Of a stretch of 9,825 nt of DNA, positions 1-6,514 are shown one piece after another. Position numbers and translations under genes: made by a program. Under the pieces are notes generated by a model. That model did not search any database. It was not told the DNA's origin and worked only from the letters and a program-made list of their open reading frames with translations. The stretch lies in the IMG/VR virus record IMGVR_UViG_2713896737_000030; one strand, written 5' to 3'. The stretch's first letter is position 1, and each line of letters opens with the position of its first letter. The DNA is from a virus (taxonomy: Duplodnaviria > Heunggongvirae > Uroviricota > Caudoviricetes).

Positions 1-1230
1 ATGAGCAGAGCACTTAACAAACTGAGCGATACACAGCTGAGGAAAATCAACGGCACACCCGCCCAAAAAACAGCCTTTCTTAATGACGGTGGAAACCTGA
101 GCGTCAGGCATTCAACCAGTGGCCTTTTAACCTGGTATTTCACTTACAGGGCCGGAACGGGAAGGGGGGCACCACCGGAACGCATTAAGCTGGGAAATTA
201 TCCTGATCTGAGCCTGAAATCAGCCAGGGAAAAAGCCGCCCAGTGTCGCGCATGGCTGGCAGAGGGGAAAAATCCACGTCATGAGCTTAATTACACCGTA
301 CAGGAAGCGTTAAAGCCGGTAACGGTTGGCGATGCGCTCACCTACTGGCTTGAGTCGTACGCAAAGGAAAACCGCGTGGATTATGCCGCCCTGAAAAAGC
401 GCCTTAATAATCACGTAATACAGCACATTGGTGCTATGCCGCTGGATAAATGCGAGCTACGGCACTGGCTGGCCTGTTTTGACCAGGTGGCAAAGCGAAC
501 GCCTGTTACTGCCGGATTCTTGCTACAGACGTGCAAACAGGCGCTTAAGTTCTGCCGGAGGCGGCGCTATGCAATCAGCAACGTTCTTGATGATATGAGT
601 GTGGCGGACGTTGGGAAAAAACCGGATATAAGCGAGCGTGTCTTAAGCACCAAAGAACTGGGCGAATTATTGCAGGCACTGGACAAAAAAATATTCTCCC
701 CCTACTACATCGCGTTAATCCGCCTCCTGATTGTGTTCGGATGCCGGACGGTAGAACTGAGGTTATCGGAGATCAGCGAGTGGGATTTTACCGAAATGCT
801 CTGGACCGTTCCGAAGGAGCACAGCAAAACGAAGGTAGCCATATTCCGGCCTATACCGGAAGCAATACTGCCGTTCATCACGCAGCTGGTGGAGCAGAAC
901 AGGCACACGGGCTTATTGCTGGGGGAAGTGAAACAGGAGGCCAGCGTATCGCAGTATGGAAGATTAGCGCACAGGAGGCTTAATCACCCTCACTGGTCAC
1001 TGCATGACATCCGGCGCACCTTTACAACCATGCTGAACGATTTAGGCGTTGATCCGCATGTCGTGGAGCAGCTTACAGGCCACCAGATGCCAGGAATGCA
1101 GCGAGTTTATAATCATTCCCGTTATCTGGATGCGAAACGCAATGCGCTGGATATGTGGACGGAGCGGTTAGGGATACTGGCGGGAACACATGAAAACGTA
1201 ACCACGCTACCAGTAGCCAGAAGAAAATAA
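1..1230 (+). CDS. int: Tyrosine recombinase / integrase, P4-like family (409 aa)
   Basis: Full-length ORF beginning at base 1. N-terminal arm-binding-like region (LSDTQLRKI...FLNDGGNLSVRHSTSGLLTWYFTYR) and C-terminal catalytic region with HDIRRTFTT...GHQ...YNHSRY, consistent with the R-H-R-Y tyrosine recombinase signature. No tRNA or att site is visible in the window, so the integration site must lie outside it. Confidence 0.9.
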   Translation: MSRALNKLSDTQLRKINGTPAQKTAFLNDGGNLSVRHSTSGLLTWYFTYRAGTGRGAPPERIKLGNYPDLSLKSAREKAAQCRAWLAEGKNPRHELNYTVQEALKPVTVGDALTYWLESYAKENRVDYAALKKRLNNHVIQHIGAMPLDKCELRHWLACFDQVAKRTPVTAGFLLQTCKQALKFCRRRRYAISNVLDDMSVADVGKKPDISERVLSTKELGELLQALDKKIFSPYYIALIRLLIVFGCRTVELRLSEISEWDFTEMLWTVPKEHSKTKVAIFRPIPEAILPFITQLVEQNRHTGLLLGEVKQEASVSQYGRLAHRRLNHPHWSLHDIRRTFTTMLNDLGVDPHVVEQLTGHQMPGMQRVYNHSRYLDAKRNALDMWTERLGILAGTHENVTTLPVARRK

Positions 1231-1594: not shown

Positions 1595-1783
1595 GTGTTA
1601 AGCACTGATCGGTTTATACGTGAAAAAGAATGCGAAAAACTAACCGGCCTTAGCCGTACGTGTCGCTACCGCCTGGAAAAGGCCGGACAATTCCCATCAC
1701 GTCGTAAACTTGGCGGTCGTTCCGTTGGCTGGTCTTTATCCGAGGTTCTGGCCTGGAAGGATAGCTGCAAGGCAGTTCATTAA
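1595..1783 (+). CDS. alpA: AlpA-family phage transcriptional regulator (small HTH, excisionase-like), GTG start
   Basis: 62-aa ORF with an SD-like AGGGGG 6 nt upstream of GTG at 1595. Protein (FIREKECEKLTGLSRTCRYRLEKAGQFPSRRKLGGRSVGWSLSEVLAWK) matches the AlpA/Xis-like pattern. Lies directly downstream of int in the same orientation, as in Gram-negative PICIs and CP4-57-like islands. Confidence 0.85.
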   Translation: MLSTDRFIREKECEKLTGLSRTCRYRLEKAGQFPSRRKLGGRSVGWSLSEVLAWKDSCKAVH

Positions 1784-1929: not shown

Positions 1930-1958
1930 AAAAAAAGCGGCCCCGAAATGGAGCCGCC
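1930..1958 (-). terminator. Putative rho-independent terminator for the minus-strand two-gene module
   Basis: On the minus strand: 5-bp GC stem (GCGGC / GCCGC, + coordinates 1937-1941 / 1953-1957), 11-nt loop, then a 7-T tract (complement of the A-run at 1930-1936). About 95 nt downstream of the minus-strand ORF stop at 2053. Confidence 0.55.
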
Positions 1959-2052
1959 TTTCTGAACAGATAACCCGCTGCGCCTTATGTGTATATGATC
2001 CCAAACATAAGCACGGGGATGATAGCCGCTATCAGGCTGGTGGGCAATGCTA

Positions 2053-2226
2053 TCAGTCTGGTTCAGTTCGTTGCCATACCTGCAATGGGCGCGTTTCCCT
2101 GTACTCTTTAAGGAATTGCTCAAGGGCAAAAGCACATGGCGCGAATCTTTCTGATTCATGCTCTATCTTTCTGCGCCGTCTTTTCCGTGCCGGTGATAAT
2201 GTTTTGGTCAATTCTTTATCGGTCAT
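2053..2226 (-). CDS. Hypothetical small basic protein (57 aa from the second ATG; 62 aa if the ATG at 2241 is used)
   Basis: ORF-track entry 2053..2241 (-). The second ATG (2226) has an AGGA-type SD about 7 nt upstream, whereas the first ATG is preceded by a 7-bp hairpin (2248-2254 / 2268-2274). Contains a KRRRRK basic stretch. Rare codons (AGA, AGG, ATA) are consistent with horizontally acquired DNA. Function unknown. Confidence 0.4.
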   Translation of the reverse strand: MTDKELTKTLSPARKRRRRKIEHESERFAPCAFALEQFLKEYRETRPLQVWQRTEPD

Positions 2227-2283
2227 TGTGTTGTCCTGCATAGCAATGCGCCGTAATACCTCACACCACGGCGCTGATAGTTT

Positions 2284-2457
2284 TTATCCTTTGGGTTCTA
2301 TGCCGCGTTGCTGTAATTCTTTGCGGAGAACGCGTTTAATCCAAGTGGCTAAAGATGTGTCGCCATCGGCCTTAGCAGCTTCTTCTAGCTGCGCTCTGAA
2401 GTCTTCCGGTAATCGCATTTGGTATGGAGGCGAACGTTTTTCTAATGGTGTTGACAT
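2284..2457 (-). CDS. Arc/MetJ-type ribbon-helix-helix DNA-binding protein (57 aa); not in the ORF track because it is under 60 aa
   Basis: Manual translation of the minus strand gives MSTPLEKRSPPYQMRLPEDFRAQLEEAAKADGDTSLATWIKRVLRKELQQRGIEPKG. This has the RHH pattern (beta strand YQMRLPEDF, helix, G-x-S/T-L turn, second helix) comparable to P22 Arc and Mnt. SD-like AAGGG lies 8 nt upstream of the ATG. Confidence 0.65.
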   Translation of the reverse strand: MSTPLEKRSPPYQMRLPEDFRAQLEEAAKADGDTSLATWIKRVLRKELQQRGIEPKG

Positions 2458-2499
2458 GGTAATTACCCTTTATTGCTATACCTACATGGTAATTACCAT
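2451..2499. promoter_or_regulatory. Operator/promoter region: two copies of ACATGGTAATTACC (2454-2467, 2484-2497) spaced 30 bp, each containing the palindrome GGTAATTACC; TTGACA -35 hexamer at 2451-2456 and TGcTATACC extended -10-like at 2474-2482
   Basis: Read directly. The second copy is a perfect 14-bp palindrome, ATGGTAATTACCAT (2486-2499). The first copy overlaps the RHH start codon and SD region. Both flank a plausible + strand sigma70 promoter that faces the downstream + strand operon. Confidence 0.5.
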
Positions 2500-2587
2500 T
2501 GTACTTGCCATTACACAAAAATCAACGCCCCGCAGTGCTGGGAACACATACGGGGCGTCTAACCAACAACGTAAACTAGGAGCCGTT

Positions 2588-2785
2588 ATGGTTGCCGTAA
2601 ATCATATACCACACCTTGTACACACACAAACGGCCTTTGTGTGGCGTTTTCTGGCACTGAGTGCCGGAGAATCTCAAATCATCCACGTAACCGCCTGGAC
2701 GGAACGCGAAGCGCGTAACCGTTGCCCGTCCGGTTGTGTTGCTGTATTTGCCGCCCGTATTCGTCAGGAGGTGCGCCATGATTAA
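2588..2785 (+). CDS. Hypothetical small protein (65 aa)
   Basis: The 3' part of the long 1841..2785 ORF. ATG at 2588 has a good SD (AGGAG, 5 nt spacing). Stop overlaps the next start (ATGATTAA), suggesting translational coupling. Function unknown; small proteins at this position in such islands are often annotated Icd-like or Ash-like, but I cannot confirm that from sequence. Confidence 0.55.
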   Translation: MVAVNHIPHLVHTQTAFVWRFLALSAGESQIIHVTAWTEREARNRCPSGCVAVFAARIRQEVRHD

Positions 2786-3675: not shown

Positions 3676-3975
3676 ATGAAACTTAAATATTCTGGCTTAA
3701 CTGCCAGTGGCAACACTCACCCTAAATTTACGCGCGGTGATATTTACCGCGACCAGTACGGCGGCACGGTAATGATTAAGGGCGTGGAAGAACGGCGCGT
3801 AACCTACCGCCGTGAAGGTTACGAATATGATTGCGTGATGCCTGTTTATCAGTTCCGGCGTGATTTTTCTCTGGTACAGACCGCGCCGCATAACGTGCCC
3901 ACCAGCAACGCCAGGGCACGGGCAAACATCCAGAAGCTGAAAACCATGGTTAACGGATTCAGGGGCAAGAAATGA
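3676..3975 (+). CDS. Hypothetical protein (99 aa)
   Basis: GGAGAA SD upstream. Stop overlaps the ATG of the replication gene (ATGA at 3972-3975). Confidence 0.65.
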   Translation: MKLKYSGLTASGNTHPKFTRGDIYRDQYGGTVMIKGVEERRVTYRREGYEYDCVMPVYQFRRDFSLVQTAPHNVPTSNARARANIQKLKTMVNGFRGKK

Positions 3976-5372
3976 AAAGCGCACCGAACTTAAAAAAACA
4001 GCCTTACGACAAGATGACCGAAGTCATTATTTTTGCGGGTAGTGATGCCTGGGCACATGCGAAACAGTGGCAGGAACAGGACGGGCGACTGGCTGGCGAT
4101 AATGTGCCTCCCGTTGTGCTGGCTGATGATCAACTGGATGAACTGGCAGAACTGAGAATCATCGACGAGGGGCGCTATTGTGTCCGGCTGTACAAGGCAG
4201 GCCACATCAGGCCATCAAATATTAATGCCATTGCGCACAAGCTGGCGGCGGCGGGTGTAACTGATGCGAATTATTACCCCGAAGGGATGCACAGCCATAT
4301 GCGGGAGAACTGGCGCGAATACCTGGAACGGGTGCGCGGGAAAGAGCCGGCGGAAGAAAAAAACCACCAGCGAAAAACCACGCTACCGATGAGCGTTGGA
4401 TCTACCGGATACGACACGCAACTGGATTACGTGGTTAAGGGGATTATTCCGGCGGTATCGCTATGCAGCATATACGGGGCTAGCGGGTCCTATAAATCAT
4501 TCCTTGCCGGATCGTGGGCGTGCCATGTTGCCACTGGTCGCCAGTGGGGAGGCCGCAGGGTTGCACATGGTGCGGTTCTCTATGTGGTTGGTGAAGGCGG
4601 TATAGGTGTTCCGCGTCGTGTAAAAGCCTGGGAGGTTGTGCACGATGAGCAGGTGAAAAATCTGTATCTGGTAAACCGCCCCATCTTTCCGGCTGCCCCG
4701 CTTGATGTTGATGAAATGGTTATCGCTGCCCGTCAGGTGGAGCGGGAAACGGGTAAACCTGTACGCATGATTATTCTGGATACGCTGGCGCGTTGCTTTG
4801 GTGGGAATGATGAAAATGATTCCCGTGATATGGGGGCGTTTATCCGTGGTTGTGACGAACTGAAACGACGCACAGGGGCCACGGTGCTGGTGGTTCACCA
4901 TTCCGGCAAGGATGAGACGAAAGGCGCGCGCGGTTCCAGTGCATTTCGTGCTTCGCTGGATGCTGAATACCGGATACGCAGGGAGGACGCAGGAAGCGAA
5001 GCGCTGGTTATCTCATGCACCAAAATGAAGGACGCGGAGGAACTCAAAGAAGCCGCATATGACTTACGCGTGGTGGAGCTTTTTACCGACGCTGACGGTG
5101 AATTAATCACGTCGCTGGTGGTGGTGGATGATCCGCGCCCTCCTGTTGAACTGGAGCGCATCGAGGAGGCAGGGAACAAGACGGAAAACCATACCGCGCT
5201 ATGGGGGTGCATCCGTTCACGCACACAGAACGGCGACAAGTGCACGATCCCGCTGTTACGTGATGACATGAAAAAGCTGGGGTATGAAATGAAAAACTTC
5301 CGGCGCTGGCTGTACAAGCTGGAAAAAGATGGGGTTATTCGTATCGATGGGGATGATGTAGCGCCGCTATAA
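3972..5372 (+). CDS. Replication initiator ATPase/helicase, RepA-like RecA-fold (AAA_25-type) domain with N-terminal extension (466 aa); PICI pri/rep-like
   Basis: Walker A-like GASGSYKS, Walker B-like RMIILD, and downstream VVHHSGKD...RGSSA motifs typical of RepA/DnaB-like RecA-fold ATPases. Positioned after alpA and followed by an iteron array. Confidence 0.85.
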   Translation: MKSAPNLKKQPYDKMTEVIIFAGSDAWAHAKQWQEQDGRLAGDNVPPVVLADDQLDELAELRIIDEGRYCVRLYKAGHIRPSNINAIAHKLAAAGVTDANYYPEGMHSHMRENWREYLERVRGKEPAEEKNHQRKTTLPMSVGSTGYDTQLDYVVKGIIPAVSLCSIYGASGSYKSFLAGSWACHVATGRQWGGRRVAHGAVLYVVGEGGIGVPRRVKAWEVVHDEQVKNLYLVNRPIFPAAPLDVDEMVIAARQVERETGKPVRMIILDTLARCFGGNDENDSRDMGAFIRGCDELKRRTGATVLVVHHSGKDETKGARGSSAFRASLDAEYRIRREDAGSEALVISCTKMKDAEELKEAAYDLRVVELFTDADGELITSLVVVDDPRPPVELERIEEAGNKTENHTALWGCIRSRTQNGDKCTIPLLRDDMKKLGYEMKNFRRWLYKLEKDGVIRIDGDDVAPL

Positions 5373-6241: not shown

Positions 6242-6514
6242 ATGGTACATGACCGCATAGCGGAGGAACTGGAGGCGAAAGGCTTTTACCGGAGGGCGGC
6301 GGCGCGATGGGGTGAAGTCATGCAGCTGGTGGAGACAGACAAGGAACGGCATCACATCACGATGCGACGGCTGGAATGTTCAAGGAAGGCACAGAGGGCA
6401 CCGGAGCCGCCGGATAATTTCGGAGACCTGAAAAAGGCAGTCGATCGCACTTATGCCGAAATGGGTATAGATGGTGCTGGTGATGAAATATGGCGCAATT
6501 ACCAGGACAGCTAA
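6242..6514 (+). CDS. PerC-family transcriptional regulator-like protein (90 aa)
   Basis: Start ATG 6242 with a GAGGGGG SD. N-terminus MVHDRIAEELEAKGFYRRAAARW matches the PerC/Pch signature (AExLExxGxWRRAAxRW). The longer track ORF from 6122 overlaps ssb and is rejected. Confidence 0.7.
   Translation: MVHDRIAEELEAKGFYRRAAARWGEVMQLVETDKERHHITMRRLECSRKAQRAPEPPDNFGDLKKAVDRTYAEMGIDGAGDEIWRNYQDS

Follow-up and report, generated by a model that had tools for sequence, protein, structure and literature searches.

We analysed a DNA stretch of 9,825 nucleotides (the window; IMG/VR record IMGVR_UViG_2713896737_000030) and found it to be 100% identical to an island of Escherichia coli O157:H7 in the roxA-phoQ interval, a Gram-negative phage-inducible chromosomal island (PICI) of the EcCICFT073 type. 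Its minus strand carries a two-gene cassette between alpA and the first gene of the replication operon: one gene encodes a 57-aa Arc-like ribbon-helix-helix (RHH) protein, and the other a small basic partner protein. Judged from sequence comparison, this cassette is probably the immunity (maintenance) module of the island, and the RHH gene is so far the strongest candidate for a repressor silencing these Gram-negative islands. A sequence-only reading of the window had listed both minus-strand open reading frames (ORFs), their terminator, a TTGACA box and a pair of palindromes, and we recovered all of them at the positions in Table 1.

Gram-negative PICIs have been stated to be transcribed unidirectionally, with an unclear global repressor (PMC6092414). 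Later papers list YlcI/YnfO or 'HicB' as accessory genes only, or call the gene after alpA unknown, and our literature searches on RHH proteins or repressors in Gram-negative PICIs found no description of such a switch. RHH repressors, the P4 eta/kil arrangement and antisense control are each already known; their combination, location and antisense embedding are new. The conserved minus-strand RHH gene with its matched operators is a concrete, testable candidate for the silencing of widespread islands, and it is also present in the experimentally tractable EcCICFT073.

The RHH gene, its operators and its partner

It was shown computationally that the genes are real, that the protein has the RHH fold class, that the layout is conserved and co-varies and that the plus-strand frame is open. 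Homologs of the RHH protein formed about 93 clusters, nearly all of 57 aa, from Enterobacterales, Pasteurellaceae, Aeromonas, Oceanimonas and Gilliamella. PHROG 228 ('Arc-like repressor') matched residues 6-55 of the window protein (E=1.5e-6), and 12 of the 33 family members matched Pfam Arc, the best with E=2.5e-4; hhalign to Arc gave a probability of 25%. The AlphaFold2 (AF2) model (pLDDT 77) comprised an extended N-terminus and helices at residues 18-31 and 36-50, a predicted strand-helix-helix fold of about 45 residues. The protein stops about 7 residues beyond helix 2, without a C-terminal toxin-binding extension. The sequence-only reading had assigned the protein to the RHH class, and the PHROG match, the Pfam hits among family members and the predicted fold agreed with it, with curated thresholds missed. 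These results indicated that the 57-aa protein is a real, Arc-like RHH protein; the constant length of its ORF across genera bore out the conservation that had been expected of it. A search of solved-structure profiles returned only designed helical-repeat proteins, which were judged spurious. In one Enterobacterales metagenome-assembled genome, the RHH gene is directly followed, on the same strand, by a second RHH paralog, MQEKRTKRNFDRLNSTAKNIRFEDELLEQIDTAAGSGKFSSWVKEACREKLERQEIEPKG (locus L009, 6181-6363). Five Photorhabdus loci (L067-L071) retain only the C-terminal 21-40 RHH codons (…WIKRILRKELRERGIEPKG) and are apparently decayed copies.

The start of the RHH gene lies in a cluster of repeats. 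The sequence ACATGGTAATTACC occurs at 2454-2467 and 2484-2497, with a spacing of 30, and a perfect 14-nt palindrome is present at 2486-2499. The core GGTAATTACC has exactly two occurrences in the whole window. At up to 3 mismatches, ATGGTAATTACCAT matched the window 4 times against 0.35 expected, a count reached in 0 of 200 shuffles. We designated the two putative operators O1 and O2. The TTGACA at 2451-2456 overlaps the RHH start codon. The first RHH codons form the -35 box of the rightward promoter P_R; its spacer therefore holds O1, and its +1 lies at O2. The sequence-only reading had placed the beginning of the cassette inside a plus-strand promoter; the TTGACA box supported this, and the -10 did so poorly, as TGCTAT matches 3 of 6 positions and is without the A at position 2. 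With this poor -10, P_R of this island was not called by the promoter scanner. A third, degenerate operator-like site (ATTGTACTTGCCAT) abuts O2 at 2498-2511; its counterpart in relatives is a clearer palindrome, TTGTAATTACAA, which contains the TACAAT -10 of the RHH promoter.

The layout was compared in 66 genome loci overall, of which about 30 were inspected in detail, and the promoters were compared in 27. The RHH gene was mostly convergent with alpA/int among the 66. The same order recurred in about 30 loci: hairpin and T-tract, RHH promoter, O2, a spacer of about 16 nt, and O1 abutting the ATG. In all loci compared, O1 abutted the RHH start codon and O2 lay about 30 bp upstream. The first RHH codons were ATG-TCA-A in every genus, and their complement, TTGACAT, supplies the -35 of the opposing promoter; the serine codon TCA, although rare, was invariant in the RHH loci. 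A promoter of the P_R type (TTGACA-17/18-TAnnnT, matching 9 to 11.5 of 12 consensus positions) was present in 24 of 27 related loci, with Icd-like genes and primases 3' of it, and a P_L type (TTGnTT-16/18-TACAAT) recurred among relatives.

The operator half-sites changed along with the residues of the RHH beta-strand. The strand SP[QP][YF]QMRL was associated with the operator core GGTAATTACC, TDQYQ[IL]RL with TGTAATTACA, NPPFQFRL with GTGTAATTACAC, SPQFPMRL with GGTATATACC and RFSVQLRL with GGTATACAAT. The proposal that palindromic operators overlap face-to-face promoters was thus upheld by a layout that is kept across genera and co-varies with the protein. We infer from this conserved layout the signature of a repressor and its operators, which would govern both the replication operon and the synthesis of the repressor itself.

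Among E. coli islands, at least 12 different small regulator alleles occupy the same position, at a constant 57 nt upstream of the partner gene. They include Arc-like proteins and others annotated as YlcI/YnfO (59 or 101 aa, with an RHH-like pattern), and every allele comes with palindromes of its own that overlie a TTGACG/TTGACA promoter. EcCICFT073 has an allele of the YlcI type, its GTGGGCCACAC sites lie in the spacer and past the -10, and its partner is 95% identical. The mosaic junctions are located at the last codons of the regulator. This diversity is similar to the heteroimmunity polymorphism of phage repressors. The region is present in up to 5-6 copies per E. coli genome, and the diversity of regulator alleles could explain how several islands co-reside without cross-talk. 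In complete E. coli genomes, the partner sequence has a prevalence of about 22% and the RHH allele of the window about 8%. The regulator-partner spacer, constant at 57 nt, contains a hairpin that was kept 3' of every regulator allele examined, the divergent L004 included, and that is without a clear T-tract. The terminator at 1930-1958 was absent from the list of a simple scanner and was recovered by folding; it is kept in L002-L005 with compensatory changes.

The partner formed 38 protein clusters, all from E. coli/Shigella, with identity down to 63%. Its core, ERFAPCAFALExFLKEY, is conserved; its basic N- and C-termini are variable, with in-frame indels. Of its two possible starts, the second ATG (2226) has the better Shine-Dalgarno (SD) sequence, with an AGG box upstream, and is the start in most database entries; this SD-ATG is conserved. 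The protein matched phrog_21027, a family of unknown function (E=2.3e-16), and AF2 predicted a single confident helix (residues 29-45) together with a basic tail predicted to be disordered. In all 15 comparisons of more divergent pairs, its ratio of nonsynonymous to synonymous differences (pN/pS, 0.27-0.51) was below that of the overlapping plus-strand (shadow) frame; within clades the values were 0.36 in the sense frame and 0.47 in the shadow frame, a difference that is indecisive alone. Stop-codon counts could not separate the strands over the partner, where the shadow frame is open everywhere.

The sequence-only reading had treated the two genes as a pair and suggested a search of toxin families with the partner. 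The pairing was not upheld: the partner occurs in E. coli/Shigella only, is combined with at least 12 regulator alleles, and is absent 3' of RHH genes outside E. coli/Shigella. The search returned no Pfam, NCBIfam or PADLOC family match. The swapping of the partner among alleles and its absence elsewhere argue against an antitoxin/toxin or specific co-factor relation. We regard the partner as a probable accessory gene that is weakly constrained, E. coli-specific and expressed with the repressor.

The plus-strand frame and the icd leader

The cassette had been described as inserted between alpA and the replication operon. No intergenic gap is present there; both minus-strand genes and the whole operator region lie antisense within an open plus-strand frame of 314 codons (1841-2785). 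The earlier description of the cassette itself holds, and what it missed is this conserved plus-strand ORF in frame with icd, similar to eta/kil of P4. Over 1841-2587, this frame contains 0 stop codons against 11 and 21 in the other plus-strand frames, with a chance estimate of about 1e-4 from the window alone. In each of 46 distinct E. coli configurations, no stop closes the frame over partner and regulator; this set covers three different 5' segments and many regulator alleles, with ORFs 210-567 codons long. It starts 26-58 nt after alpA, and in 31 of the 46 it ends at the icd stop. Taken over all genera, the read-through ORF is frequent, not universal. Few cases of selection on both strands are as clear as this one, in which the genes lie antisense within an ORF that has remained open through many unrelated alleles. 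The 249-codon segment 1841-2587 had no protein family match and has an antisense-like composition rich in Cys, Ser and Arg; PGAP annotates 1841-2434 of the plus strand as an 'Icd-like pseudogene' in O157.

The same nesting is found in P4, where a long ORF (eta) follows the alpA homolog and ends in the Icd-like Kil. The Icd-like domain occupies residues 266-309 of the window ORF and residues 85-132 of the P4 eta/kil ORF, and the latter hit the NF033153 Icd-like model with E=7.8e-21. The relationship required this NCBIfam profile: a tblastn search of phages with the Icd-like protein did not recover P4, and BLASTP to the P4 ORF was insignificant. In P4, the translation of eta is coupled to the alpA homolog, and transcripts begun at the upstream promoter can thereby pass the immunity region (PMC10111431). 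We considered whether the window encodes a P4-like C4/isrK immunity RNA; this was ruled out by Rfam scans, which gave no match in the window at E<=1 and none in 1780-2800 at E<=10, with C4 (74.9 bits) and isrK (60.8 bits) detected in the P4 control. Because the eta/kil nesting is shared and C4/isrK are absent here, the PICI region can be seen, by analogy, as an immunity region of the P4 type whose RNA would be replaced by a protein repressor from the opposite strand. A 7-bp G+C hairpin (TGGCGGC-ACACA-GCCGCCA) lies at 1790-1808, between the alpA stop and the ATG of the long ORF; it is kept in L002-L005 and is without a T-tract.

The icd leader and the start of icd contain two further conserved minus-strand elements, a predicted terminator and a candidate promoter box, that the sequence-only reading missed. 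A hairpin followed by a T-tract is present in the leader, the T-tract being on the minus strand only. By RNAalifold, the minus strand folds at -21.7 kcal/mol with 10 compensated pairs; the plus strand reaches -8.0, and positions that form A-C mismatches in it pair as G-U in the minus strand. A minus-strand TAnnnT within the first 20 nt of icd was invariant in 27 of 27 loci despite varying residues; codon 6 of icd is represented by nine different codons across loci, all ending in T. On the basis of this conserved box and the minus-strand hairpin with its T-tract, we predict a cis-antisense RNA of about 78 nt that would be complementary to the icd start codon and SD. The icd SD itself lies in the loop of a small hairpin (2570-2587) whose stem covaries (CGTTA/TAACG, CATTA/TAATG, CTTAC/GTAAG).

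A proposed switch and competing explanations

In the following account, DNA binding and repression by the RHH protein, the mechanism of read-through and the existence of the antisense RNA are inferred, and its steps beyond the binding of the RHH protein to O1 and O2 are drawn by analogy. The RHH protein would be made from its own promoter, P_L, and would bind O1, in the P_R spacer abutting the -35, and O2, at the P_R +1 near the -10/+1 of P_L. From these positions on P_R and P_L it follows that binding would turn off the kil(icd)-replication operon and limit the synthesis of the protein itself. P_R and P_L are opposed, and a few bases separate their start sites, so that activity of either promoter should disturb the other as well. 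While the island is quiescent, the RHH protein would hold both P_R and itself in check, the antisense RNA would act as a second brake on leaky icd translation, and the partner, co-transcribed with the repressor, would be expressed. For induction, as in P4, a helper phage would switch alpA on. AlpA-driven transcripts would then be translated through the eta-like frame, which selection would have kept open across the antisense genes; these transcripts would reach the replication genes, bypass the repressed P_R and collide with RHH transcription. AlpA overexpression alone induces replication of EcCICFT073 (PMC6092414), which is consistent with this route.

Several observations weigh against parts of this account. 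The RHH protein scored 14.3 bits (E=0.038) with Pfam Arc (PF03869), below the curated cut-off of 20.4, and 18.7 bits with the NCBIfam YlcI/YnfO model (NF041551), whose cut-off is 30. In other genera, the plus-strand frame was interrupted in about 12 of 32 loci and open in about 20, and the leader was in frame in 19 of 31. The candidate antisense promoter has no well-conserved -35. The -10 of P_R (2474-2479), near consensus in most relatives, is TGCTAT in the window against TACTAT in the 96%-identical island L005. This may be a down-mutation that raises the dependence of the island on alpA read-through; with so defective a box, P_R may leave the repressor little work in this island, most expression perhaps coming from alpA read-through. 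Finally, as AlpA alone suffices for induction (PMC6092414), the RHH protein is not a master repressor in the sense of Stl of the Staphylococcus aureus pathogenicity islands (SaPIs).

The cassette could also be a type II toxin-antitoxin (addiction) module, with the RHH protein as antitoxin and autorepressor and the partner as a minimal toxin that stabilises the island. We consider this very unlikely. The partner is missing from RHH loci outside E. coli/Shigella, so that the two genes do not consistently co-occur, and one partner follows at least 12 regulator alleles. The RHH protein has only 57 aa and lacks a toxin-binding C-terminal extension, and the partner has no match in Pfam, NCBIfam or PADLOC and is predicted to be one helix with a disordered basic tail; moreover, the operators are tied to the -35, spacer and +1 of the opposite promoter in all genera. 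The position of the operators also bears on another explanation, in which the RHH protein is a local autoregulator of an accessory (moron-like) cassette, with the partner serving, for example, as an anti-phage or host-modulating factor, and the replication operon is outside its control. The partner does lie in the same operon and varies like accessory genes, the P_R -10 of this island is weak, and AlpA alone induces the island. Most genera, however, have the RHH gene without the partner, always overlapping a near-consensus opposite promoter directed toward icd/primase genes, and the retained rare Ser codon TCA within the -35 is hard to account for otherwise. Local autoregulation is thus improbable, although less so than an addiction module.

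It might further be argued that only the plus-strand ORF is functional, as a Bro/Eta-Icd fusion protein, and that the minus-strand ORFs are shadow frames. PGAP annotates the plus strand only, the frame was open in all 46 configurations, and the third codon positions of the two strands coincide, so that conservation signals are partly shared. Nevertheless, the length, start and fold class of the RHH protein are kept in genera whose plus-strand frame is broken, the protein matches the Arc-like profile, and it co-varies with its operators; the 249-codon segment has no family match and an antisense-like composition. We therefore give this explanation almost no credence for the cassette as a whole. 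For the partner alone it keeps a small but appreciable chance; here the lower omega in its own frame (15 of 15) and the conserved SD-ATG argue for a gene.

Our preferred reading thus remains that of an immunity module built on the RHH protein and its operators. A broader proposal, which we put forward only tentatively and hold as a possibility somewhat short of even, is that Gram-negative PICIs, EcCICFT073 included, are neither unidirectional nor repressor-less. They would instead carry a heteroimmune Arc-like switch with allele-specific operators, encoded antisense within a translated eta-like ORF and backed up by a cis-antisense RNA. If this is true, the choice between quiescence and AlpA-driven replication would be made by three layers of information that overlap on two strands.

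Island context and closest known systems

Table 1. Features of the cassette, its surroundings and the island, in window coordinates
Feature	Position	Strand	Details
int	1-1230		O157 island annotation
alpA (activator; gene before the region)	1595-1783	+	Pfam Phage_AlpA, E=5.4e-17; PGAP: helix-turn-helix (HTH) regulator
Eta-like open frame, 314 codons	1841-2785	+	Begins 58 nt after alpA stop; ends at icd-like stop
Intrinsic terminator of the minus-strand operon	1930-1958	-	Hairpin GGCGGCUCCAUUUCGGGGCCGC (12 bp, G+C) then U7, from fold
Partner gene, 57-aa basic protein	2053-2226	-	62 aa from alternative start at 2241
Intercistronic hairpin GCGCCGT-13 nt-ACGGCGC	2248-2274	.	In constant 57-nt regulator-partner spacer
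Arc-like RHH gene, 57 aa, candidate repressor	2284-2457	-	Homolog set, profiles, AF2 model
Rightward promoter P_R, TTGACA-17-TGCTAT	2451-2479	+	-35 built from RHH codons ATG-TCA-A
Operator O1 (putative), ATGGTAATTACCCT	2456-2469	.	Within P_R spacer, over RHH start codon
Operator O2 (putative), ATGGTAATTACCAT	2486-2499	.	Perfect palindrome at P_R +1; abuts -10/+1 of RHH promoter
Leftward promoter P_L of the RHH operon, TTGATT(2525-2520)-16-TACAAT(2503-2498)	2498-2525	-	Called by promoter scanner
Hairpin and T-tract, minus-strand terminator in icd leader	2514-2557	-	RNAalifold; hairpin 2526-2557
Icd-like gene (P4 kil homolog), replication operon gene 1	2588-2785	+	NF033153, E=5.2e-18
Candidate cis-antisense RNA promoter, TTGTGT(2629-2624)-17-TATGAT(2606-2601)	2601-2629	-	Predicted RNA about 2594 to 2517
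RepA-family helicase	3972-5372		O157 island annotation
PerC-family regulator gene	6242-6514		O157 island annotation

The window has int, alpA, a replication module, capsid-like, decoration and terS-like genes and a dedicated attachment site, as do Gram-negative PICIs of the EcCICFT073 type; EcCICFT073 has the same layout and is also adjacent to phoQ. Besides the genes in Table 1, the island contains small ORFs and a DUF4222 gene after icd, and SSB, capsid-like, head-decoration-like and terS-like genes. The capsid-forming island EcCIEDL933 (15.4 kb) was ruled out as its identity, as the locus spans about 11 kb and portal, protease and TerL are not among its annotated genes. The PerC-family gene may be RgdR: the Gram-negative PICI paper reports that O157 islands carry RgdR, a regulator of the expression of the locus of enterocyte effacement and type III secretion (LEE/T3S).

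Every PGAP-annotated gene of the island is on the plus strand, in line with the sequence-only reading, and its remark that a gene as small as that of the RHH protein is easily missed was borne out: neither minus-strand ORF is annotated by PGAP in O157:H7. PGAP habitually annotates here a plus-strand 'Icd-like pseudogene, missing C-terminus' (L001, 9442-10035, with equivalents in other RefSeq genomes). The minus-strand genes are left out in some genomes, and YlcI/YnfO is annotated in others. The annotation gap is thus systematic, with a pseudogene called and both minus-strand genes overlooked.

YlcI/YnfO is the PGAP name for alleles at the same position in sister islands, EcCICFT073 included, and these share an RHH-like pattern with the window protein, which at 18.7 bits stays under the 30-bit cut-off of that model (NF041551); the literature searched describes no function for the family. 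Dual control of a replication operon by an RHH protein and a counter-transcript is found in plasmid pMV158, in which replication is under the RHH repressor CopG (about 50 aa) and the counter-transcript RNAII over the translation start of the initiator. The likeness is one of description; copG is co-transcribed with repB, whereas transcription of the RHH gene of the window runs the opposite way.

The immI region of P22 (Arc, Mnt, sar) likewise combines small Arc-type RHH repressors, palindromic operators and closely apposed, opposed promoters with a short cis-antisense RNA over a downstream ribosome-binding site; in the window this RNA is only predicted. In an alignment, the P22 Arc segment PQFNLRWPREV resembles the N-terminal strand of the window protein, PPYQMRLPEDF. 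The two differ in that hhalign to Arc reached only 25%, no antirepressor gene is present in the window, and the target there is the replication operon.

In SaPIs, the PICIs of Gram-positive hosts, the repressor gene lies next to int in opposite orientation to the excision-replication operon, and it holds the island in quiescence (PMC6092414). The Stl/Rpr repressors resemble the RHH gene in this arrangement. They are, however, large HTH proteins inactivated by a helper-phage protein, whereas the window has a 57-aa RHH protein, an AlpA route of induction and no known anti-repressor.

A further parallel is the immunity region of satellite phage P4 (vis, eta/kil, P_LE, CI RNA). It shares with the window, in matching gene order, an alpA/vis gene, a long ORF that begins just past this alpA homolog and ends in an Icd-like Kil, small ORFs, a primase, and an internal promoter of the constitutive type within the long ORF. 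The similarity of Kil is detectable by profile only, not by BLAST. P4 has an RNA as its immunity factor; in the window its counterpart would be a protein, whose gene is on the opposite strand and whose putative operators lie at the promoter. The candidate RHH switch sits where the CI/C4 RNA immunity system sits in P4.

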